This document shows, piece after piece, positions 1,533-54,916 of a DNA stretch of 54,916 nt. Under the pieces are notes generated by a model. The model was not told the DNA's origin. It saw only the letters and a list, made by a program, of their open reading frames with translations, and ran no database searches. The stretch spans positions 1 through 54,916 of the forward strand of contig CALRHL010000004.1 in the NCBI GenBank assembly GCA_943359455.1. Reading direction: 5' to 3'. A program made the position numbers and the translations under genes. This DNA comes from Candidatus Uhrbacteria bacterium RIFOXYB12_FULL_58_10. GTDB taxonomy: Bacteria; Patescibacteriota; Patescibacteriia; UBA9934; GWF2-40-263. Numbering within the stretch: position 1 is the stretch's first letter; every line of letters starts with the position of its first letter.

Positions 1533-2818
1533 ATCGATCCAAACCAGGTGACGAGATGTAAAACGATCGAGGAGACGGCGAAAGCGGGTGTTGCAAAGAT
1601 AATTCCAAGTGTTGGTAAAATAAATCCAGCCAAAATCGCGATCCCGGTTAGTGTCATGAGGATTGGAACGAGTGGAAGGACGAGAAGATTGACGATCGGT
1701 GCGGTGATCGACGCGGTGCCAAAATGCCAGAGCATGATCGGGAGAGTGGCGATGATGGCGACGATCGATGCGGAGAACGACTTGCGCAACGCGAATATCT
1801 CTGGAACGAACGTGCATTTCTTTTCCATCTGCGTTGCGTACAAAAGCATGGCAGCCGTTGCGACAAAGGATAGTTGAAATCCGACATCATCGAAAAGGAG
1901 AAATGGATTTTGTAGCAACATGAGTGTGAGGGCGAGGAGTAAAACATTTGGCATGTACGGTTTTCGATGGATCAAAAATCCGACCAGAGTAAGCGAACCC
2001 ATCAGTCCTGCACGGACGATGGCTGGAGATGCACCAGCGATGAGAACATAGATGAGTAGTAATCCAGCGGTGAGATACGTTCCATTGCGTCGACCGAGCG
2101 CGGTGTGTGTGATCCAATACAAAAATGTCATGGAAAAAAGTGAGACATTAAAACCGCTGGCTGCGAGAATGTGAGACGTTCCTGTTGATGAAAAATCGTC
2201 TTTTAAATCCGCCGAGAGTGCGGAACTTCCACCAAATAACAGTCCGGACAGGAACGATGCGTGTGGTTCAGGAACGATCATCGCGAGACGATCCACAATC
2301 ACGCGTTTGATCGAAAGAAGTGTCGAAATAATACCAGTGCCAGGCGATTGTATGTCCAAATACTGAGCGCGAAAACAGATCGCGAGAATTCCCTGACTCT
2401 GAAGATATCGATCGTATCGAAATGATTCAATCGGTTTAGGAAGTTCCGGCTGACAATTGAAAACGATGCTGTCACCGTAGGAAATGACAGGAAATGGTTC
2501 TGCATAAACAAGAAGTTTACCGCCAGTAGATTCATCTGCAACAGAAAGATCATCTACTTCGATGCGCTGTCCGTATGATGTGTTTTGAACTTCAGCAACG
2601 ACTGTGCCAGCAATGCGAACTGGATGGCCGACCGATTCTGCGATCGTTGAATGGTTAAAATGGTCGTCAGGTTGAACGAACGGTAAGATCACGTTTCCAA
2701 TCGCAATCCCTAAAACAAAACAGATCATCCCCGCCGCAAAAGATTTCGACGGCGATCGGAGGATCTGAGAAATAAAATGTCTTCTATCATTTTGCATTTT
2801 TAATTTTGCATTTTTCAT
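1529..2818 (-). CDS. comEC: ComEC/Rec2 competence channel (OB domain + Competence membrane domain)
   Basis: TGTSHILAASGFNV, SPAIVRAGLM, DVGFQLSFVAT, many TM segments. Confidence 0.9.
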   Translation of the reverse strand: MKNAKLKMQNDRRHFISQILRSPSKSFAAGMICFVLGIAIGNVILPFVQPDDHFNHSTIAESVGHPVRIAGTVVAEVQNTSYGQRIEVDDLSVADESTGGKLLVYAEPFPVISYGDSIVFNCQPELPKPIESFRYDRYLQSQGILAICFRAQYLDIQSPGTGIISTLLSIKRVIVDRLAMIVPEPHASFLSGLLFGGSSALSADLKDDFSSTGTSHILAASGFNVSLFSMTFLYWITHTALGRRNGTYLTAGLLLIYVLIAGASPAIVRAGLMGSLTLVGFLIHRKPYMPNVLLLALTLMLLQNPFLLFDDVGFQLSFVATAAMLLYATQMEKKCTFVPEIFALRKSFSASIVAIIATLPIMLWHFGTASITAPIVNLLVLPLVPILMTLTGIAILAGFILPTLGIIFATPAFAVSSIVLHLVTWFGSI

Positions 2819-4134
2819 TCTTTCCGCAATCCCACTCCTCGATACAAAAATCCATGCGCGGACAGATTCAAATCAGCCAGATGATTCATCCCATCAAAAA
2901 TTCTAGGCTCAGCCATGCGCTCGCGAACAGCCTCAAACGAAACTTCACGAAACTCTGGCCATTCATTCAAAACAAGAAGTGCATCCGCACCTGTCGTCGC
3001 ATCAACGGCGGTTGGAGCAAACTCGACGGAGGATGGCAACACGCGTTTTGCTGCTTCCATTCCCTTTGGATCAAACGCAACAATCTCGGCACCAAGACCA
3101 ATGAGCCGCTGAACAATATCCATAGGAGCGGATCCACGTACATCATCCGTTCCACCTTTGAATGCAAGTCCCCACACCGCAATGCGACGACCACGAACTC
3201 CGTCAAGATCTGAAACAACGCGAGTCACAAACCGCTCACGCTGACGATTATTCACTTCAATCACCGTTGCAAGCAATCGCGAATCATATCCGCTCGTCCC
3301 CGCCATTTGCATAAGGGCAGAAACGTCTTTCGGGAAACACGATCCACCATAACCAATTCCTGCACGCATAAAATGCGGACCAATGCGTTTGTCCATTCCA
3401 ACCGCTCGTGTCACTTCGCGAATATCTGCTCCAAATCGTTCTGCAATATTTGCAATTTCATTCACAAACGAAACTTTGGTTGCAAGCAAAGCATTCGCGG
3501 CATACTTTGTAAGTTCTGCACTTTGCAATGACATAAACACACGCGGTGCGTTTATCCCATCGTGCAGTCGATCAAGGGTTGTCTGCGCAACGGAATCGTC
3601 CGCACCGATCACAATTCGATCCGGTTCCATAAAATCTTTCAGAGCAAAACCTGGACGTAAAAATTCTGGTAATGAAGCAATTGCCACAACCGATGTCAAC
3701 GCTTCACGACCAACTTCTCCCATCTTCTGACGAATGCGTCGAATCACTTCCTGATTTGTTCCAACAGGCACGCTCGACTTCACAACAATAAGTGCCTCAT
3801 GATCCAGCAATTCTCCAATGCGATCAGCTGCGGCTTCTACGAAAGACAAATCGGCAAATCCGTCTGTCCGCGCGGGTGTTCCTACCGCAATCATAACCAC
3901 CTCTGCTCCATCAATCACTTCTGCCAAATCTGTTGCAAATACAATACGCCCGGCCTCCTGCATTTCGCGCAGGAGCTCAGGAAGCTCTGGTTCATAAAAC
4001 GGTGTCTCCCCCAAATCGAGTTGCGCAATTTTTGATGGATCTGTATCTACACACGCCACTCGATGCCCAAGTTTGGCATATCCAAGCCCCGTAACAAGGC
4101 CAACATATCCCGTGCCGATCATGACAAGATTCAT
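2815..4134 (-). CDS. ugd: UDP-glucose/GDP-mannose dehydrogenase family protein
   Basis: GTGYVG Rossmann motif, PEFLR, AELTKYAAN, GYGGSCFPKD, GLAFK..TDDVR. Confidence 0.92.
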   Translation of the reverse strand: MNLVMIGTGYVGLVTGLGYAKLGHRVACVDTDPSKIAQLDLGETPFYEPELPELLREMQEAGRIVFATDLAEVIDGAEVVMIAVGTPARTDGFADLSFVEAAADRIGELLDHEALIVVKSSVPVGTNQEVIRRIRQKMGEVGREALTSVVAIASLPEFLRPGFALKDFMEPDRIVIGADDSVAQTTLDRLHDGINAPRVFMSLQSAELTKYAANALLATKVSFVNEIANIAERFGADIREVTRAVGMDKRIGPHFMRAGIGYGGSCFPKDVSALMQMAGTSGYDSRLLATVIEVNNRQRERFVTRVVSDLDGVRGRRIAVWGLAFKGGTDDVRGSAPMDIVQRLIGLGAEIVAFDPKGMEAAKRVLPSSVEFAPTAVDATTGADALLVLNEWPEFREVSFEAVRERMAEPRIFDGMNHLADLNLSAHGFLYRGVGLRKE

Positions 4135-4140
4135 ACCGCG

Positions 4141-6633
4141 TTACTTCACCACAATGTTGATCAAGCGTCCAGGGACGAAAATCACCTTCACTATTTCTTT
4201 TCCTTCGACAAATTTTATGACATTTTCTGTGGCAAGTGCGCGATCTTGAACATCTTTCTCTGGAAGATCTGGTGAGAGCTCGACGGTTGCACGAAGCTTC
4301 CCATTAACTTGAATCGCGATCGGGACGAGCTCATCAACAAGCAAACCAGGATCATACGTTGGCCACGCTTCGTCAAAGATCGACGTTGTGTGTCCAAGAT
4401 CAGACCAGATTTCCTCTGCAAGATGCGGAGCGAACGGCGCGAGGATCGCAATCAACATCTCATACTCTTCTCGTGGCACTTCCTCAAACTCCATCATCGC
4501 ATTTACACAAATCATCATCTGCGAAATCGCTGTGTTGAATTTGAATGCATCTATGTCGTCGGTGACTTTTTTTATTGTTTTGTGAACAATTTTTTTTATA
4601 TTTTCAACTTTCGAATTTTCTTCGGATTTCGAATTTCGAATTTCGAATTTCATTCTCATCCCCCACACCTTATCCAAAAACCTCCTCACCCCTACAATTC
4701 CATTCGTACTCCACGGCTTTGCATCCTCAAGCGGACCCATGAACATTTCGTACAGCCGGATCGAATCCGCGCCGTACAGCTCGATCACTTCATCAGGATT
4801 GACGACGTTCCCACGAGACTTCGACATTTTTTCTCCGTCCGGACCGAGAATCAGACCTTGATTACGAAGTTTCAAGAATGGTTCTTCAAAATCTAGATAT
4901 CCAAGATCATGCAACGCATACGCAAAGAATCGCGAATACAGCAAATGCATCACGGCGTGTTCAGCACCACCTACATACAAATCCACGGGTGCCCAATACT
5001 TGACCATTTCTGGTTCTGCAAATACTTCTGTGTTGTTCGGATCTGTGTAGCGCAGATAGTACCAGGAAGAATCGACAAATGTGTCCATGGTGTCTGATTC
5101 ACGACGGGCTGGACCATCGCATTTTGGACAAGTCACATCATGAAACGTCGCGGAGTCAACGAGCGGCGACCGTCCTGTTGGCTTAAAATCTACATCGCGA
5201 GGAAGTTCTACTGGCAACTGTTTCGGATCAACGGGTTGTGGACCACAGTTTTCACACCAAATGATCGGAATCGGTGCACCCCAGTAACGCTGGCGACTGA
5301 CAAGCCAATCACGCAGATGGTAGTTCACCACACGCTTCCCCTTCCCTTTGCTTTCAAGTTCAATGGCGAGCATTGTCTTCGCTTCCTGACTCGTCAGTCC
5401 GTTAAACTCTTGAGAATGAACAAGTATACCTGGTCCAGTCCAACATCCAGACAAGCTGTCTGACCCTTCGACAAGCTCAGAGAATATATCTGATGGCGGT
5501 GCGATCACCTGTCGCACTGGCAAGCCATACTTCCCCGCAAACACAAAATCACGTTCATCATGCGCTGGCACCCCCATCACCGCGCCCGTTCCGTAGTTCA
5601 TCAAAACGTAATCCGAAATCCAAATCGGCACATCCTCTCCGGTGAGCGGATGTTTTGCGTACGTTCCGATAAACACGCCGGACTTGTCTTTCTCTAATTG
5701 CGTGCGTTCGAGCTCGGATTTTTTTCGTGCTTGATCGCGATACGCAACGACCGCTTCGTAATTGTCTGGCGTTGTCAGAACATCCACAAGCGGATGTTCT
5801 GGTGCAAGGACGACGTACGACACACCAAACAACGTATCCACACGCGTCGTAAACACAGGAATCGAAAACTCCGCCTCGTGCAGACGTTCAGAACCAATCT
5901 CCCCAACCATCTCTGCCCGCAACCCGCGAAACTCGACCTCTACTCCTTCCTTGCGCCCAATCCAGTTGCGTTGCATCGACTTAATGCGCTCAGGCCAATC
6001 AACGGTTTCAATCCCAGCAAGCAAACGATCGGCATATTTCGTAATCCGAAAAAACCATTGCTCTAATTCTTTTTGAATAACCACCGTTGAACAACGCTCG
6101 CACGATCCGTCCACCACCTGTTCATTTGCAAGCACGGTCTGGCACCCATCACACCAATTCACCGGAGCCTTTGCGCGATACGCAAGATCATTTTTGTACA
6201 ACAATAAAAACAACCACTGCGTCCACTTGTAATACGAAGGATCGCACGTTGAAACTTCACGAGACCAATCAAACGACAATCCAAGTGCTTTCATCTGACG
6301 ACGAAAATTCTCTATCGCCTTCCCCGTCGTCTCCGCCGGATGCACCCCTGTCTTCACGGCATAATTTTCCGCAGGCAATCCAAACGCATCCCACCCCATC
6401 GGAAACAAAACATTCTTCCCCAGCATACGAGCTTTGCGCGTCAAAATATCAACCGCAGTATAGGATTCCACATGCCCCACATGAAGCCCTGCTCCAGATG
6501 GATACGGAAACATCGTAAGATAATACACAGCATCATCCGCGTCCTTTGTTTCCTCTCTGACCTTTCCAACCTTTTTTTCCTCCCATTTCTTCTGCCACTT
6601 CGGTTCAATTTCTAAATGGTTATAACTTGGCAT
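4141..6633 (-). CDS. leuS: leucine--tRNA ligase
   Basis: MFPYPSGAGLHVGH, GWDAFGLPAEN, editing domain GTGAVMGVPAHD, SRQRYWG, KMSKS; start MPSYNH at 6633. Confidence 0.98.
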   Translation of the reverse strand: MPSYNHLEIEPKWQKKWEEKKVGKVREETKDADDAVYYLTMFPYPSGAGLHVGHVESYTAVDILTRKARMLGKNVLFPMGWDAFGLPAENYAVKTGVHPAETTGKAIENFRRQMKALGLSFDWSREVSTCDPSYYKWTQWLFLLLYKNDLAYRAKAPVNWCDGCQTVLANEQVVDGSCERCSTVVIQKELEQWFFRITKYADRLLAGIETVDWPERIKSMQRNWIGRKEGVEVEFRGLRAEMVGEIGSERLHEAEFSIPVFTTRVDTLFGVSYVVLAPEHPLVDVLTTPDNYEAVVAYRDQARKKSELERTQLEKDKSGVFIGTYAKHPLTGEDVPIWISDYVLMNYGTGAVMGVPAHDERDFVFAGKYGLPVRQVIAPPSDIFSELVEGSDSLSGCWTGPGILVHSQEFNGLTSQEAKTMLAIELESKGKGKRVVNYHLRDWLVSRQRYWGAPIPIIWCENCGPQPVDPKQLPVELPRDVDFKPTGRSPLVDSATFHDVTCPKCDGPARRESDTMDTFVDSSWYYLRYTDPNNTEVFAEPEMVKYWAPVDLYVGGAEHAVMHLLYSRFFAYALHDLGYLDFEEPFLKLRNQGLILGPDGEKMSKSRGNVVNPDEVIELYGADSIRLYEMFMGPLEDAKPWSTNGIVGVRRFLDKVWGMRMKFEIRNSKSEENSKVENIKKIVHKTIKKVTDDIDAFKFNTAISQMMICVNAMMEFEEVPREEYEMLIAILAPFAPHLAEEIWSDLGHTTSIFDEAWPTYDPGLLVDELVPIAIQVNGKLRATVELSPDLPEKDVQDRALATENVIKFVEGKEIVKVIFVPGRLINIVVK

Positions 6634-49237: not shown

Positions 49238-49444
49238 ATGTTGAAAACACAGGCAAAAAAGGCTGTTTCTTATTTCAGGGAATCTAAAGAAGAGCTTGAA
49301 AAAGTTACTTGGCCAACTCGACAGGAAACCATACGCTATTCGATCTTGGTCGTGATCGTTTCTGTATTCATGGCCTTTTTCTTCGCCAGCCTCGACTGGG
49401 CGTTGAATCTAGGTCTTGAACAGCTCATCAGATTGACATCTTAA
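49238..49444 (+). CDS. secE: preprotein translocase subunit SecE
   Basis: ELEKVTWPTR + one TM; upstream of nusG. Confidence 0.93.
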   Translation: MLKTQAKKAVSYFRESKEELEKVTWPTRQETIRYSILVVIVSVFMAFFFASLDWALNLGLEQLIRLTS

Positions 49445-49500
49445 ATTAAGCTCCAAACCTTCGAGTTTCGAGTTTCAACTTTCGATCTTTTTTTACTCCT

Positions 49501-50046
49501 ATGCCAAAGCAAACAGCGAATTATGGTCGGCGTTGGTACGCCATTCACACCTATTCCGGATATGAGGACAATGTGTGTGAAGCGCTTAACCAACGCATCG
49601 ATACCATGGACATGCATGACAAAATCTTTGCTGTGCTCGTTCCAAAAGAGAAAAAAATCAAAATAAAAAATGGAAAACGGAAAACGCTCGAGGAGAAAAT
49701 TTTTCCAGGCTACGTTCTTGTGGAGATGATGGTAGACGACGATTCCTGGTACGTCGTACGTAACACACCAAACGTCACAGGTTTTATTGGCACGGGAACG
49801 ATTCCAACTCCGATAGCTCCAGAAGAAATTGAAGCACTCATGAAACGCGTTGGTGTCGACGAACCAGAAATGACGCTCGATGTCTCAAAAGGTTCTGTTG
49901 TGCAAATTACCGACGGTCCATTCAAAAATTTCGAAGGAAAAGTTTCTGCGATTGATGCAACTCGTGGAAAGATCAAAGTACTCGTAAACATGTTTGGTCG
50001 AGAAACTCCTGTCGAACTCGATTTCCTTCAAGTAAAAAAAATCTAA
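49501..50046 (+). CDS. nusG: transcription termination/antitermination factor NusG
   Basis: WYAIHTYSGYE, FPGYVLV, VRNTPNVTGF, KOW DGPF, MFGRETPVEL. Confidence 0.97.
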   Translation: MPKQTANYGRRWYAIHTYSGYEDNVCEALNQRIDTMDMHDKIFAVLVPKEKKIKIKNGKRKTLEEKIFPGYVLVEMMVDDDSWYVVRNTPNVTGFIGTGTIPTPIAPEEIEALMKRVGVDEPEMTLDVSKGSVVQITDGPFKNFEGKVSAIDATRGKIKVLVNMFGRETPVELDFLQVKKI

Positions 50047-50106
50047 TAATTCACATAGCACTGGTCGCCTCCCTTCGTGGGTTGAATCCAGTCAAACAAA
50101 ACTGCT

Positions 50107-50529
50107 ATGGCAAAGAAAATCTTGACTCAGGTTAAGCTCCAGATTCCAGGTGGAAAAGCGACTCCTGCCCCGCCAGTTGGTCCAGCACTTGGTCAGCACG
50201 GTTTAAACATTGCGGCGTTCGTCAAGCAATTTAACGACGCAACGCAAAGTCGTATTGGTGAGGTGGTGCCAATTATCATCAACGTATATGAAGATCGAAC
50301 GTTCGACTTCATCATGAAAGTTGCTCCCGCTTCTGGACTTATTGCAAAAGCTGCAGGGATAGAAAAAGGCTCTGGAAAACCGCTCACGGAAAAAGTGGGG
50401 AAAATCACGAAGACTCAACTGCGGGAAATCGCCGAAAAAAAATTACCTGATCTTAACACCACCGACATTGACGCTGCGATGAAAATAATCGCTGGCACCG
50501 CGCGTCAAATGGGAGTGGATATTATATGA
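50107..50529 (+). CDS. rplK: 50S ribosomal protein L11
   Basis: [31 protein letters not shown]. Confidence 0.97.
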
Positions 50530-50876
50530 CAAAAGGTGGATCGATCATTCTCAGAATTTACTTCACGCTCGTCTCATTTGTTACGCTCATGATGCTTGTG
50601 TTCTCGGTGTCCGATCTTGTAAACATCGCGCTTAAATCGTTCGTGTTTACGAAAGCCGATACAGGTTATCCAACCTACTGCGATTTGCAATACCAGACAC
50701 AAGAGCAGTGTGACCAACAAAAAGTGCAAAGCTCTGATCAAGCGGTTGTTGAAAAACAACAATCAGCCGTCCGAGACATTTCCCTTCTGCTTGTCGCCGC
50801 ACCTTTGTTCTGGCTCCACTGGAGAATGGTGTATCGGGATTGGATGGATAGTAAAAAGGAAGAAAAAGGAAGTTAA
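50526..50876 (+). CDS. DUF5671-like two-TM membrane protein
   Basis: [11 protein letters not shown] ... [11 protein letters not shown]; ATGA overlap with rplK. Confidence 0.7.
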
Positions 50877-50888
50877 CACATAAAAAAC

Positions 50889-50925
50889 GTGGGAGGTCCG
50901 ACGTATGTCGGACCGTTTGAACCAC
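50889..50925 (+). promoter_or_regulatory. L1-binding translational operator upstream of rplA
   Basis: gtgggag-gtccgac/gtcggac-cgtttgaaccac, the GUGGGAG...ACCAC L1-site architecture. Confidence 0.75.
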
Positions 50926-50933
50926 TTATCGAT

Positions 50934-51614
50934 ATGGGAAAACGATTTGAGACAGCAAAAAAACTCGTTGAGGTGAAGAAAGTTTATTCGGTAACGGATG
51001 CGATCGCGCTTTTGAAAACGTTTCCAAAAGCTGGATTCGATGAGGCGGTTGAATTGCATATAAATCTTGGAATCGATCCAAGCAAAGGTGATCAACAAGT
51101 ACGTGGAACGATTGCATTTCCGCACGGAGTCGGAAAATCGAAACGTGTTATTGCCTTCGTTGAAGCCGCAAAGGAAGCTGAAGCAAAAGCGGCAGGAGCA
51201 GACATCGTTGGTGGCGAAGAGCTTATTGCAGAGATCGCTTCCAAGGGTGTTCTCGACTTTGATGTCGCCGTTGCAACTCCTGCGATGATGCCAAAGATCG
51301 CGAAACTCGCGAAACTTCTCGGACCAAAAGGACTCATGCCGAACCCAAAGAATGATACAGTCGGTCCAAACGTTGCAAAAATGATTGGGGAACAGAAAGC
51401 AGGTAAACAGTCGTTCAAAAACGACACAACGGCGAACATCCATCAAATTGTCGGTCGTGTCTCCATGAGCGAAATTCAGCTCAAAGAAAACCTGACTCCG
51501 TTTATCGACCAGATCCGAAAAATCAAACCAGCGTCGTCAAAAGGAATCTATTTCAAAAACGCGGTTCTCACAACCACGATGGGTCCGGGAATTAAAGTAG
51601 ATCTCAACAGCTAG
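50934..51614 (+). CDS. rplA: 50S ribosomal protein L1
   Basis: FDEAVEL, DQQVRG, PHG.GK, LGPKGLMPNPK, TTMGPG. Confidence 0.97.
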   Translation: MGKRFETAKKLVEVKKVYSVTDAIALLKTFPKAGFDEAVELHINLGIDPSKGDQQVRGTIAFPHGVGKSKRVIAFVEAAKEAEAKAAGADIVGGEELIAEIASKGVLDFDVAVATPAMMPKIAKLAKLLGPKGLMPNPKNDTVGPNVAKMIGEQKAGKQSFKNDTTANIHQIVGRVSMSEIQLKENLTPFIDQIRKIKPASSKGIYFKNAVLTTTMGPGIKVDLNS

Positions 51615-51689: not shown

Positions 51690-52343
51690 ATGATTTTATC
51701 TCGCCAAGACATCGTCTCACAGATCAAGTCTGGAGGAATTCGACTCACCCCAGAGCTCGATCAGTTTCAGATGCAGCCGCACGCCATTGATCTGCGTCTT
51801 GGTTATAAGTTTTTGATCCCGCGTAATTGGACGATCGATGAAAAAGGTCGTCGTGCCATTAAAGTTTCGATCGACAATGTCACCGCGCATCCAGAACAGT
51901 TTGATGAGGTCATCCTCCAGCCAGGACAATATTTTGAACTGCTCCCAAATGAATTTGTGATCGGAACATCTCTCGAACGCATAGAAATGAATGCACCAAA
52001 CCTGATGGCGATCCTCTTCCCTCGTACATCCACGAATCGTCGAGGAATCGATCTGTCACTTTCTGGAATCATTGATGTTGGATACAAAGGCCATCTCATC
52101 TTTCCAATGAAAAACGAAGCAGGTGATCAGGTCATCCGGATCTATCCTGGCGAACGTGTTTGCCAAGTTATTTTTGAAGAGTTGAAATCCCCACTAACTC
52201 CAGAGGAGGCAAATCAACACGGACTGTCCGGAGCAAAATACAGCGAGACGACGGATCAGACGTTCAAACTGGACAAAGATGAGGAACGTCGTGCTCTCGT
52301 AGAAGGAAAGCTTGATGAGATGAAAAAACGATTCGGAGTCTAA
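51690..52343 (+). CDS. dcd: dCTP deaminase-family (trimeric dUTPase fold) protein lacking the catalytic Glu
   Basis: MILS, QPHAIDLRLG, L.PNEF, RTSTNR, IDVGYKG, PGERVCQ; FPMKN where Dcd has LE(F/L)xN. Confidence 0.8.
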   Translation: MILSRQDIVSQIKSGGIRLTPELDQFQMQPHAIDLRLGYKFLIPRNWTIDEKGRRAIKVSIDNVTAHPEQFDEVILQPGQYFELLPNEFVIGTSLERIEMNAPNLMAILFPRTSTNRRGIDLSLSGIIDVGYKGHLIFPMKNEAGDQVIRIYPGERVCQVIFEELKSPLTPEEANQHGLSGAKYSETTDQTFKLDKDEERRALVEGKLDEMKKRFGV

Positions 52344-52351
52344 AGAAACCT

Positions 52352-53260
52352 CTAAAGTTGTCTCAAAACATTTTTCATCATCCAACAGGCATCTTCGGGA
52401 GTTTGGTATTCGATATGGTAAACAATCGCGGGATTGCCGCGGGCGAAGCGGGAAACCGATGCGCCTTTTTTTGATAAAAGAACGATTGGTTTGCCGGCCA
52501 TCTGTGCATAGGCGAGTTCTCCTCCAACTCCGAGGGATGTATACGTAACATCGGCCACAATCACGTCTGAGGCACGCACCTGATCGACATCGATCTGCCA
52601 GACTTCTTGTGAGGTACGGCAGTCGTTGGAGCGTGGATCACAATGCATGTGTGGAACATACGGCTTGATGCCGATTTCAAGACAAGCGTCTGCGAGTGAT
52701 TCGTACAGTTTCCGCATCGGTCCATACTCCTCTTCTGGCATGTTTGTCATCGGTCCAGAAATGTAGGAAGACTGAACGGATGGTTTCAATGTCTGTGCAA
52801 ACACATTGTCACGACTAAACCTATCGTGCGCGTCGTCTGTCACGTACAAATCACGAATCCCTGCGTTAATGAGTGTTGTCCAGCACGATTCACAAGCCCA
52901 CCAGTGACCATACATGTACGCATCGGCTCCTATGAGGTCGATTCCACGCTCAGTCGCCATTTTGACCGCCATCTGCTCTGCGTGTCCCGGAGCATCATGA
53001 AGGGTGCACAGATCATATCCTGTCCCAGACGGACAATCTAAAACAACGCGTGGGCAAATATGTACAGTTCCTGCCCCCCGACTAAACCCGTTCCCCGCTG
53101 TCACGAGTACTTCCCCATCCCGCACCATAGCGATTCCGACAGGATAAAGTGTATCTCCTGACTGCTCTGCACGAGCTTTTGCTGCAGAAAGCATAAAACG
53201 GTCGTCGTGAGGAACATACTTGAGCTGACGATCAGATGGCATGTAGGGATAGTCTGGCAT
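52352..53260 (-). CDS. dCMP-deaminase-like domain fused to nucleoside 2-deoxyribosyltransferase/Rcl(DNPH1)-like N-glycosidase domain
   Basis: N-terminal CPR..C.SG.GY.LC, HAE, WACESC, LINAGI; C-terminal YISGPM, PYVPH, D.DQV.ASDVIVAD, SLGVGGELAYA, KPIVLL. Confidence 0.85.
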   Translation of the reverse strand: MPDYPYMPSDRQLKYVPHDDRFMLSAAKARAEQSGDTLYPVGIAMVRDGEVLVTAGNGFSRGAGTVHICPRVVLDCPSGTGYDLCTLHDAPGHAEQMAVKMATERGIDLIGADAYMYGHWWACESCWTTLINAGIRDLYVTDDAHDRFSRDNVFAQTLKPSVQSSYISGPMTNMPEEEYGPMRKLYESLADACLEIGIKPYVPHMHCDPRSNDCRTSQEVWQIDVDQVRASDVIVADVTYTSLGVGGELAYAQMAGKPIVLLSKKGASVSRFARGNPAIVYHIEYQTPEDACWMMKNVLRQL

Positions 53261-53289
53261 AGTAGGAATGCAAAATTCAAAATGAAAAA

Positions 53290-53796
53290 TTATGAAATGG
53301 TAAAATGCATTAAAATTCCTTGCCCAAGCGGTCGTGATTCGATCAACTTCAAATCGATTCGTCCGATCCCAGATACAAGTGGGATCCCTTCACCAAATAG
53401 AACGGGTTCGACGGTTAGGAACAGTTCGTTGACGAGACCTGACTGTAGGAACTGCGAATATACAGATGCACCACCGCAGACAGCGAGATGGGTGACGCCT
53501 TCGTTCTCGAGACGGGCGACGAGAGCAAGGACAGATTCAGAAGTGAACTCGATTCCTTCGACTCGCTCCGCTCGCTCAGGAGATATGGTATGAGTCATAA
53601 CAATCAGCCGTCTTCCCTTCAATGGCTTCCCGAAGGTCTTAAACGTTGTATTCCCCATCACCACCGTCCCAATCTCTTTTGTTTTTTCAACAAAAAAACG
53701 TGTGTCTTCTTTGCTCGTCCATTCAAGCGAAGATTGTCCTGGAGCCTGCCCAATTTTTCCATCCGCACTGATGGCGGCGATAAGGGTGATGATCAT
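53290..53796 (-). CDS. folA: dihydrofolate reductase family protein
   Basis: LIAAISADGKIG, W..KED..FF, VVMGNTTF, KPLKGR, GGASVY; ATGA-coupled to the thyA-like gene. Confidence 0.85.
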   Translation of the reverse strand: MIITLIAAISADGKIGQAPGQSSLEWTSKEDTRFFVEKTKEIGTVVMGNTTFKTFGKPLKGRRLIVMTHTISPERAERVEGIEFTSESVLALVARLENEGVTHLAVCGGASVYSQFLQSGLVNELFLTVEPVLFGEGIPLVSGIGRIDLKLIESRPLGQGILMHFTIS

Positions 53797-54626
53797 AATG
53801 CAATTTGTACTTTTTTCATGGCAGCGCCTGGATTGTACTGACATTGAAACATTTCGATCAGTTCTGTGACGAGTGTAGCATCTGCTTCTAATGCTCGTTG
53901 GAAGGAGTGTTGAGGAAGCTGGCAGATAATTTCTGGATGGACTACGACTTCCCGACCAAGAATATCCTCGACGGCTTCGAACTGATTTTCGTAAATGTGT
54001 GCGTGTGAAATGGAAACCGTGAGTTTACCGACGGCAACAGCGAGCTCTTGCGCAAGCATGGCTTGCAAGAGAGCGAAGTCAGCGGTGTCGTTTGGGTTTC
54101 CAAGTACCATGTCGTTTGATCGGATAACGACGTGAAGATTCAATTTTCCGCCGATGATATTTACCGTCCAGGTGAATGGACACGGAACATTTTTCTTTTT
54201 AGGTGCACGCAATCCATCATCGCTTGGATCCCACATGATGACAACTCCCTGTCGGGATGTCGGTTCCTCACGCAGATGCTCAACCAACTCAATCAACTGG
54301 TCACGACCAAAATGATGACGCCAACGATATCCATACGCGGTCTCAACCGTTCCATCTGCTTCCAAAAAACTATCCCAACCTTTTGTAAACTGTTGCAAAA
54401 AACCAGCGTGCTTATGGCCCGCAATAAACCAGACTGTTTCTGCACAAAAAAACTTTGGAAACATTTTGCGCACGGTCAAGAGAGGAAAACCACTCGCAGG
54501 TTGAAGCTCATACGTCACTCCCGGGATCGCACGCGTCGAAAAACCCGTCCGTTCATTTTGAACAGTCTCCCCTTCGTGGTAAATGCGTCCAAGAGCGTCG
54601 AGATAGACTCGATCAAATGTCGTCAT
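53793..54626 (-). CDS. thyA: thymidylate synthase-fold enzyme with cytosine-nucleotide specificity signature (Asn177->Asp)
   Basis: ERTG, FPLLT.RK, E..WF, YGYRWR, DQL, PC (C149), RSND..LG.PND (D180), HIYENQ. Confidence 0.85.
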   Translation of the reverse strand: MTTFDRVYLDALGRIYHEGETVQNERTGFSTRAIPGVTYELQPASGFPLLTVRKMFPKFFCAETVWFIAGHKHAGFLQQFTKGWDSFLEADGTVETAYGYRWRHHFGRDQLIELVEHLREEPTSRQGVVIMWDPSDDGLRAPKKKNVPCPFTWTVNIIGGKLNLHVVIRSNDMVLGNPNDTADFALLQAMLAQELAVAVGKLTVSISHAHIYENQFEAVEDILGREVVVHPEIICQLPQHSFQRALEADATLVTELIEMFQCQYNPGAAMKKVQIAL

Positions 54627-54695
54627 AACCCACTCATCCTATCAGACCAAACATAACTATCCAAACGTGGACTTTTCGGCTAATATACGACTATT

Positions 54696-54916
54696 ATGCA
54701 ACTGCCTGTGGATATAAAAAGGATTCGTCCAGACGTTCCGTTTCCGGAGTACAAAACTGCTGGGGCGATTGCGTTTGATATCGCCGTTTCAGAAGGCAAA
54801 ACGATGCAACCGGGCGAAACGGTCTTTTTTTCAACAGGATTAGTAGTCTGCACGCCTCCTGGCTATGGCCTCATTATTGCCGGACGATCATCAAACGCAA
54901 AAAAACAGATTACCCT
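54696..54916 (+). CDS. dut: trimeric dUTPase-like protein, 5' part (runs off window; absent from ORF track)
   Basis: my translation MQLPVDIKRIRPDVPFPEYKTAGAIAFDI...PGE....TGL....PPGY...IAGRSS. Confidence 0.8.
   Translation, partial: MQLPVDIKRIRPDVPFPEYKTAGAIAFDIAVSEGKTMQPGETVFFSTGLVVCTPPGYGLIIAGRSSNAKKQIT

Follow-up and report, generated by a model that had tools for sequence, protein, structure and literature searches.

The window analysed herein is a stretch of 54,916 nucleotides that makes up the entire contig C4 of Candidatus Uhrbacteria bacterium RIFOXYB12_FULL_58_10, a tiny groundwater bacterium whose genome assembly measures 1.07 Mb in 44 contigs and is 97.7 % complete. We examined five genes of nucleotide metabolism, among them a homologue of the thymidylate synthase (TS) ThyA, and the families of their products were assigned with Pfam and NCBIfam profiles. 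The ThyA homologue gene (277 aa; 53793-54626, minus strand) matched PF00303 with 177.3 bits. It is followed on the same strand by a DHFR gene (53290-53796, minus), which encodes 168 aa from an internal ATG and matched RibD_C (75.4 bits) and DHFR_1 (63.7 bits), and by a fusion gene of 302 aa (52352-53260, minus). The fusion protein consists of a DCTD-family zinc deaminase domain (residues 1-165; 52766-53260, minus), with a PF00383 match of 38.5 bits over residues 19-140, and a DNPH1/Rcl-like domain of the nucleoside 2-deoxyribosyltransferase (NDT) fold (52352-52765, minus), with a PF05014 match of 33.8 bits over residues 183-268. A Dcd-fold gene (217 aa; 51690-52343, plus) is convergent with the fusion gene and matched PF22769 (92.9 bits) and, slightly below the cut-off of 92.8, TIGR02274 (92.1 bits). 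Finally, a trimeric-type dUTPase gene (dut; 54696-54914, plus; PF00692 29.7 bits, TIGR00576 35.8 bits) is divergent from the ThyA homologue gene. The contig end interrupts dut and leaves its 5' part of 73 codons, and full-length homologues stand at the same place in relatives. The 69 bp between the two divergent genes (54627-54695) presumably hold the promoter region of both. An earlier note on this DNA had placed all five genes at these coordinates and strands, with the convergent and divergent flanks, and had described an ATGA overlap between the thyA stop and the folA start; our analysis reproduced each of these observations.

The active site of the ThyA homologue was examined in ungapped HMMER alignments to solved thymidylate synthases and in a MAFFT alignment with E. 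coli ThyA, whose numbering is used throughout. Asp was present at the site of Asn177 and Pro at that of His147, with positions 146/147/177 reading C-P-D in the MAFFT alignment. Arg127 and Leu143 are replaced by Gln and Asn, respectively, and a 4-residue insertion precedes the catalytic Cys. The protein retains Trp80, Arg126 and Ser167 and shares with canonical thyA-folA systems (EC 2.1.1.45) the fold, Arg21, Glu58, Tyr94, Cys146, Arg166, Asp169, His207, Tyr209, the C-terminal tail and the coupling to DHFR. In those systems a dCMP deaminase or Dcd/Dut supplies dUMP, and the window's homologue departs from them in Asp177, Pro147, Asn143 and Gln127. The TS-type tail is conserved and follows the pattern P..P.KK.QIA[LVI].

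The Asp at the selector position 177, to which the earlier note had drawn attention, was found in 117 of the 120 nearest homologues; the remaining three gave no match to the search expression. We found 13,028 relatives among 1.84 billion representatives and aligned the best 150 of them with eight closer homologues, the query and four references (n = 163). Asp177 was present in 144 of these sequences, 115 of them with exactly C-P...D, and Asn in 15, four being gapped. Asn143 was paired with Asp177 in 126 sequences and Leu143 with Asn177 in 15, and Asp169 was present in 160, the window's homologue included.

An N177D exchange turns TS into a dCMP methylase, and 177 and 147 were the two positions that best told apart the TS homologues of metagenomic contigs with modified cytosine from those of unmodified contigs (PMC8670742). 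Hydroxymethylation goes along with an acidic residue at 143, and 5-hydroxylation with Asn at 169 (PMC13326640). Hydroxymethylases release tetrahydrofolate (THF) and require no DHFR, and the TS C-terminal tail is absent from T4 dCMP hydroxymethylase (dCH) (PMC5175136). Viewed by these marks, the window's protein has the PF00303 fold and Cys146 of a dUMP-specific ThyA and lacks Asn177 and His147. It differs from the dCMP hydroxymethylases T4 gp42 and MilA in that residue 143 is Asn, which is not acidic, and the tail is present. Since Asp169 is kept, it is not a 5-hydroxy-dCMP synthase, the RB69/DLP3 type of which has Asn. It agrees with the TS homologue of phage Xp12 in combining Asp177 with a non-His residue at 147, a non-acidic residue at 143 and Asp169, and Asn143 is compatible with a methyl product because Xp12 TS has Asn143 itself. 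We predict from these residues that the ThyA homologue is a dCMP C5-methyltransferase that yields dihydrofolate (DHF). This activity, deoxycytidylate C5-methyltransferase of the Xp12 type, is presumably EC 2.1.1.54.

The Xp12 TS homologue was among the best tblastn matches in 50,697 phage records (39.7 % identity, E 7e-39). It is 38.6-39.7 % identical to the window's homologue and shares with it the N143/C146/P147/D169/D177 signature as well as motifs that flank the catalytic Cys and Tyr94. In the DNA of Xp12, 5-methylcytosine replaces cytosine. The phage has only one PF00303 gene, behind which lie genes for a dCMP deaminase and a DHFR-like protein, and the same trio is found in phage Mallos, whose TS likewise reads C-P...D. 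When columns 143, 147 and 177 were masked for tree building, the ThyA homologue fell outside the canonical clade (support 0.96) and formed a subclade of its own among Asp-type enzymes, joined to the Xp12 clade at a node with a support of only 0.74. Two fusion representatives join an Asp-type TS to a dCMP deaminase (P0146) and to a MazG-like PRA-PH domain (P0177). A third protein, P0145, carries an N-terminal HNH_3 endonuclease domain before an Asp-type TS, which may reflect fusion to a homing endonuclease or an error in gene calling.

The Xp12 TS homologue and five of seven metagenomic homologues produced 5-methyl-dC in vivo, and phage deaminase genes co-localised with such TS genes on 104 of 149 modified contigs, compared with 17 of 277 (bioRxiv 10.1101/2024.12.05.627091). 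One of these phage deaminases was active on 5-methyl-dCTP and not on dCMP or 5-methyl-dCMP (bioRxiv 10.1101/2024.12.05.627091). The Xp12 deaminase converts 5-methyl-dCTP to dTTP, which was termed 'a new thymidylate biosynthesis', and DCTD enzymes generally tolerate C5 substituents (PMC12088426). For the phage route, both sources cite Wang & Ehrlich 1982 and Kuo et al. 1982. We found nothing on the Xp12 nucleotide genes in the available part of PMC7653180, and PMC11946847 yielded references alone.

The DHFR belongs to the RibD_C/DHFR clan, is translationally coupled to the ThyA homologue through the ATGA overlap and is 25-27 % identical to the DHFR-like proteins of Xp12 and Mallos (E 9e-5 and 1e-5, respectively). 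A pattern scan with one genome per species confirmed 403 loci of the ThyA homologue clade, and neighbours were counted at a distance of at most 5 kb from the ThyA homologue in the best 80 of these loci, several of which are incomplete. A DHFR homologue was found in 55 of the 80, and its start frequently coincides with the final TS codon. The other neighbours were the deaminase (66 loci), the Dcd-like gene (40), dut (27) and the DNPH1-like domain (19). The Dcd-like gene frequently lies immediately downstream of the ThyA homologue on the same strand in these related loci, and the divergent dut/thyA layout of the window was found again in 27 of the 80.

The Dcd-fold partner was compared with M. 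tuberculosis and other solved dCTP deaminases. The Glu of the '...TLELxN' strand of Dcd performs deamination. At the column of this residue ('...ITLELSN'), the window's protein has Pro, while the fold and the Ser/Arg motif are retained; it thus lacks the catalytic Glu that marks Dcd and the bifunctional Dcd-Dut. The loss of the Glu had been proposed in the earlier note, and it held in each of the 39 aligned Dcd-like genes beside Asp-type ThyA homologues, the window's included, all of which have Pro. Given that the substitutions in the ThyA and Dcd homologues are conserved among relatives, they are not sequencing accidents. We then compared Dcd-fold genes beside the two types of TS. Beside Asp-type TS (n = 10), the Glu column held P in nine and S in one, and Glu in none. 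Beside Asn-type TS (n = 22), it held E in ten, A in nine, and Q, L and P in one each. This comparison suggests that the partner of Asn-type TS can deaminate or resembles a dUTPase, whereas the partner of Asp-type TS would have lost deamination. The Dcd-fold protein is predicted to be a non-deaminating (d)NTP pyrophosphatase, and we propose that it converts dCTP to dCMP and pyrophosphate (PPi). It is the sole PF22769 gene of the genome. T4 and Xp12-like phages were considered as a source of a Dcd-fold dCTPase and rejected, because no PF22769 match was found in T4, Xp12 or Mallos. In the available part of PMC10733785, the candidate phyla radiation (CPR) appears only as relatives of amoebal Dcd2.

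The deaminase domain of the fusion protein has the zinc motifs H-A-E and C-x-x-C of its family, in the form HAEQ and CESC. Matches to solved structures were marginal (best E 0.019) and give no help on its substrate. The deaminases linked to Asp-type ThyA homologues form a distinct subfamily with an HWWxCxxCW motif. In Xp12 deaminase, W128 was placed against the 5-methyl group (PMC12088426). The column aligned to W128 was aromatic in 66 of 69 linked deaminases (F in 65, Y in 1), compared with 6 of the 23 that are linked to an Asn-type TS; identity in this alignment is low, and the match therefore counts as weak support. The genome encodes one further PF00383 protein, which is TadA-like. We propose that the deaminase domain converts a 5-methyl-dC nucleotide to a dT nucleotide.

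The best solved relatives of the DNPH1-like domain were rat Rcl (E 2.3e-5), human DNPH1, the '5-hydroxymethyl-dUMP N-hydrolase', and MilB (E 0.0099). The catalytic residues of Rcl/DNPH1 are the Glu of 'GVG.EL' and an upstream Asp. Both the Glu of '..GVG.EL' and the upstream Asp of the window's domain aligned with rat Rcl and human DNPH1 (E 2.3e-5 to 0.004). The alignment stops short of the N-terminal Tyr, to which an 'SSYISG' stretch may correspond. The domain is probably a (d)NMP N-glycosidase.

Next to consider is where else this organism could obtain thymidylate. The earlier note had suggested a search of the rest of the genome for a canonical thyA or thyX. The single PF00303 gene of the genome is the ThyA homologue of the locus, and ThyX, thymidine kinase and deoxynucleoside kinase were not found in this 97.7 % complete assembly. 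Both dUTPase-family matches of the genome are at the locus. Serine hydroxymethyltransferase (SHMT) and ribonucleotide reductase are encoded, and a thymidylate-kinase fragment lies at a contig edge. The gene set thus appears to be the only recognisable T source of the organism. In 41 relatives, a ThyA-family match was present in 33 and ThyX in exactly the remaining eight. This mutual exclusivity indicates that the module occupies the place where a thymidylate synthase is needed. The ThyX genes of G009, G021, G032-G035, G037 and G039 lie in open frames of 600-805 aa. Each frame gives two matches to the Thy1 domain, the layout of a tandem-domain ThyX.

Sorted by sequence, the 41 relatives comprised 23 members of the Asp clade, G011 with an Asp-bearing ThyA of the canonical lineage, seven genomes with an Asn-type ThyA, two with an Asn-type protein of ~505 aa, and the eight with ThyX. 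Of the 24 Asp-bearing relatives, 23 have the window's deaminase subfamily (E<=1e-5), the exception being G023, which is 89 % complete; it was found in none of the 17 others. A P-type Dcd-like gene was present in 23 of the 24 and in one of the 17. The co-occurrence with the Asp variant that the earlier note had put forward as a test thus stood for the deaminase subfamily and the P-type Dcd-like gene; it did not stand for linkage to a deaminase as such, which is taken up below. The clade itself (at least 46 % identity) was found in 11 of 301 genomes drawn evenly from the phylum, the own genome included, and the idea that this is the typical ThyA of Patescibacteria was rejected on this count. All of the best 80 loci carry Patescibacteria-type names or placeholder labels. 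The available part of PMC12455944 mentions a transferred thyA without residue analysis.

Genome G011 provides a second occurrence of the same change. Its ThyA (L121, G011:C2:8500-15500, ORF 2998-4059, minus strand; ORF, open reading frame) is 44 % identical to E. coli ThyA and 27 % identical to the window's homologue, and it nested within the canonical clade (support 0.97, selector columns masked). Yet it carries Tyr147 and Asp177. The operon contains a DHFR, a deaminase of the window's subfamily that is 63 % identical to the window's, and a divergent dut, and a P-type Dcd-like gene lies ~3 kb off. It appears that a canonical ThyA in G011 independently gained Asp inside an Asp-type operon, which would be the same switch that engineers used to turn TS towards dCMP.

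Taken together, these comparisons favour, at a level of somewhat better than even confidence, a housekeeping module in which a cytosine nucleotide, and not dUMP, is the source of thymidylate, by way of dCTP, dCMP, 5-methyl-dCMP and dTMP. In the first step, the Glu-less Dcd-fold protein would hydrolyse dCTP to dCMP and PPi without deamination. The ThyA homologue would then methylate C5 of dCMP with 5,10-methylene-THF and release DHF, as its active-site signature and its likeness to Xp12 TS suggest. The overlapping DHFR would regenerate THF, to be reloaded by the SHMT encoded elsewhere; its family and the gene coupling point to this role. Finally, the DCTD-family deaminase would turn the 5-methyl-dC nucleotide, as mono- or triphosphate, into the dT nucleotide. 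Dut would hold dUTP low, and the DNPH1-like domain may, speculatively, clear a dead-end nucleotide such as dUMP that an Asp-type TS does not use. The same order of steps, with FolA recycling DHF, had been the main inference of the earlier note; every comparative test that we ran on the sequences pointed towards it and none contradicted it. The contrasts that DISCRIMINATE between readings were the Dcd-fold partner, the co-inheritance, the convergence in G011 and the linked deaminases.

Several observations weigh against this cytosine-first route. The identity between the ThyA homologue and the Xp12 TS homologue is only about 37-40 %, and the node uniting their clades has a support of only 0.74. 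The ThyA homologue has Gln at the site of E. coli Arg127, which we take to be a phosphate ligand. BLAST showed no significant similarity between the window's deaminase and its Xp12 counterpart (E 0.16). The relatives compared are kin, and the co-occurrence counts therefore overstate independence. Two of the seven metagenomic phage homologues gave no 5-methyl-dC (bioRxiv 10.1101/2024.12.05.627091). Furthermore, Asn-type ThyA genes elsewhere in Patescibacteria also adjoin DHFR, DCTD-like deaminase and Dcd-fold genes, and operon composition alone thus does not discriminate, although their DCTD-like neighbours belong to another deaminase subfamily. Linkage to a dCMP deaminase, which the earlier note had proposed as a test, looked perfect as a discriminator in the 41 relatives and was dropped after a phylum-wide sample showed Asn-type ThyA often beside a DCTD-like gene. 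Lastly, G027 (L119, L120) combines two Asn-type ThyA genes with a P-type Dcd-like gene 68-69 % identical to the window's. Given this combination, the Pro form is not strictly bound to Asp-type TS and could be a plain dUTPase. G027 is also without the window's deaminase subfamily and may be a lineage caught after replacement of an Asp-type module.

Several of these points would fit an ordinary pathway, in which the deaminase converts dCMP to dUMP, the ThyA homologue methylates dUMP despite its Asp owing to compensating changes, and the Glu-less Dcd is a second dUTPase feeding dUMP. The order thyA-folA-deaminase with a dUTPase-fold gene nearby around Asn-type ThyA of Patescibacteria and the P-type gene of G027 agree with it, as does the observation that archaeal-type dUTPases have the Dcd fold, the window's protein giving a weak match to NF002598 (29.5 bits). 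In addition, the ThyA homologue exceeds the cut-off of the TIGR03284 'thymidylate synthase' profile (117.2 vs 108.35). However, all characterised Asp-bearing enzymes named in the cited papers, namely T4 dCH, MilA, BcmA, Xp12 TS and the engineered N177D and N229D enzymes, act on cytosine nucleotides (PMC8670742, PMC5175136, PMC13326640, bioRxiv 10.1101/2024.12.05.627091). Asp177 with a non-His residue at 147 evolved a second time in G011, within the operon. A second dUTPase would be redundant beside the canonical Dut, and Glu was found in 0 of 10 partners of Asp-type TS, compared with 10 of 22 partners of Asn-type TS. We consider the ordinary pathway unlikely, and the cytosine-first route remains our preferred reading.

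A further alternative shares the chemistry of the cytosine-first route and differs in its main product. As in Xp12, 5-methyl-dCTP would be the main product, genomic C would be partly or wholly 5-methylcytosine, and dTTP would come from the same pool by deamination of the triphosphate. Xp12 and PaMx74 use the same set for this purpose, with a pyrophosphatase that removes dCTP alongside an Asp-type TS, a deaminase of the DCTD family and a DHFR, and the one characterised deaminase of this kind acts only on triphosphates (bioRxiv 10.1101/2024.12.05.627091). Deamination at the triphosphate level would make 5-methyl-dCTP available to the polymerase, which is why we keep this reading. Mild support comes from the C5 DNA methyltransferases: none was found in the own genome, and their genes were rarer in the Asp-type relatives (3 of 24) than in the others (6 of 17). 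On the other hand, full-length C5-methyltransferase genes (309 and 236 bits) are present in the Asp-type congeners G003 and G006, and such enzymes would be without a substrate if every C were already methylated. The exclusivity with ThyX demonstrates no more than a requirement for the module in thymidylate supply. That Uhrbacteria and other module-bearing Patescibacteria remove dCTP and build DNA with C largely or wholly replaced by 5-methylcytosine before replication seems improbable to us on this balance, as does the reading as a whole.

The earlier note had also offered production and turnover of 5mC/5hmC nucleotides, as in the MilA/MilB pair. In a pair of the MilA/MilB or BcmA/BcmB kind, the ThyA homologue would hydroxymethylate (d)CMP and the NDT-fold domain would free the 5-substituted base for a small-molecule pathway or for turnover. 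The selector Asp and the NDT-fold relatives MilB (E 0.0099) and DNPH1 fit such a pair. However, residue 143 is Asn instead of Asp or Glu, Ser167 is kept where ribo-specific MilA/BcmA have Ala (PMC5175136), and the protein retains the C-terminal tail that T4 dCH lacks. Its gene is also translationally coupled to that of a DHFR, whereas hydroxymethylation gives THF. The NDT domain occurs in only 19 of the 80 related loci, and no other thymidylate source was found in the own genome. Together, these points make the pair very improbable.

The predicted module resembles several known systems in part. With the modules of Xp12, PaMx74 and metagenomic phages it shares a TS homologue, a DCTD-family deaminase and a RibD_C-type DHFR, an associated dCTP-directed pyrophosphatase and, as proposed for the window, thymidylate made from methylated cytosine nucleotides. 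Unlike the phage modules, it is chromosomal and is found in 403 species-level genomes, compared with 7 viral contigs. Its pyrophosphatase has the Dcd fold, whereas that of the phages is MazG/PRA-PH; its TS forms a separate clade, and its deaminase is of another subfamily and, in the window, shares one polypeptide with a DNPH1-like domain. T4 gp42 with the gp56 dCTPase, MilA/MilB and BcmA/BcmB likewise have the selector Asp and a cytosine-nucleotide substrate together with a dCTP- or base-removing step. T4 gp42 differs in Asp143, Thr147 and the lack of the C-terminal tail, is a distant outgroup in the tree, and performs a hydroxymethylation that needs no DHFR. In mammals, DCTD deaminates 5-hydroxymethyl-dCMP, and DNPH1 then hydrolyses 5-hydroxymethyl-dUMP. 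The window's fusion likewise brings together a DCTD-family deaminase and a DNPH1/Rcl-like domain, probably an N-hydrolase acting on dNMPs. In mammals, these are two distinct proteins with a role in nucleotide sanitation, whereas the window has them fused within a thymidylate operon, and most relatives do without the glycosidase domain, which only 19 of 80 loci have.

The five-gene set lies directly downstream of secE-nusG-rplK-rplA (49238-51614). A phage or prophage origin was rejected given these ribosomal-protein and nusG/secE genes and the finding of only 7 contigs with relatives (45-50 % identity) in IMG/VR; both observations indicate that the locus is chromosomal. Between rplK (50107-50529) and rplA (50889-51614), we noted an ORF of 116 aa with a hydrophobic N-terminal stretch (50526-50876, plus). 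It shares 4 bases with the end of rplK, and the L11-L1 operon does not usually carry a gene at this position.

Other TS variants were observed among the Patescibacteria. TS-family proteins of 474-510 aa with Cys-Leu at 146/147 and Asn177 occur in several genomes (G029, G038, G084, G106, G055), and this TS type has roughly 200 extra residues. In L127 (G029:C5, ORF 2797-4326 of the locus) and L128 (G038:C34, ORF 1089-2600), residue 143 is acidic (Asp/Glu), and acidic 143 with Asn177 is the combination that the literature ties to uracil-nucleotide hydroxymethylation. The long TS proteins of G084, G106 and G055 adjoin a DCTD-like gene. In G301, there are two T4-gp42-like TS homologues of ~240-260 aa (D143-C-T-D169-D177), one at L165 (G301:C2, 16000-22500) and one at G301:C2:62696-63178. 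Each has a deaminase-like gene ~3 kb away, and they could represent a duplicated phage-like hydroxymethyl-dCMP island.

In textbook thymidylate synthesis, dUMP is methylated by ThyA or ThyX in all cells. We found no description of a cytosine-first route in Patescibacteria or any other cell in the literature searched. The earlier note knew of no account of it as a core cellular pathway; this held for cells in the literature searched, whereas the route itself had already been described for phage Xp12 and metagenomic phages. The cytosine-first route is thus established for phages, and a cellular housekeeping version of it looks new. If the proposed route is true, this would be a cellular lineage whose sole way to thymidylate leads through 5-methyl-dCMP, a third way to T in cells. 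It would explain why the ThyA genes of these bacteria naturally carry the 'engineered' N177D, and it would assign a function to a conserved family of Glu-less Dcd proteins and to a distinct subfamily of dCMP deaminases. Automatic annotation labels these proteins 'thymidylate synthase' and 'dCTP deaminase', and metabolic reconstructions of these genomes would then draw the wrong reactions. The finding also bears on the origin of the phage DNA-modification pathway, that is, whether the housekeeping module or the phage version came first, and it raises the question of whether some Patescibacteria have globally methylated DNA. If base replacement, which we regard as improbable, were true, these would be the first cellular organisms to replace a canonical base at the nucleotide level.

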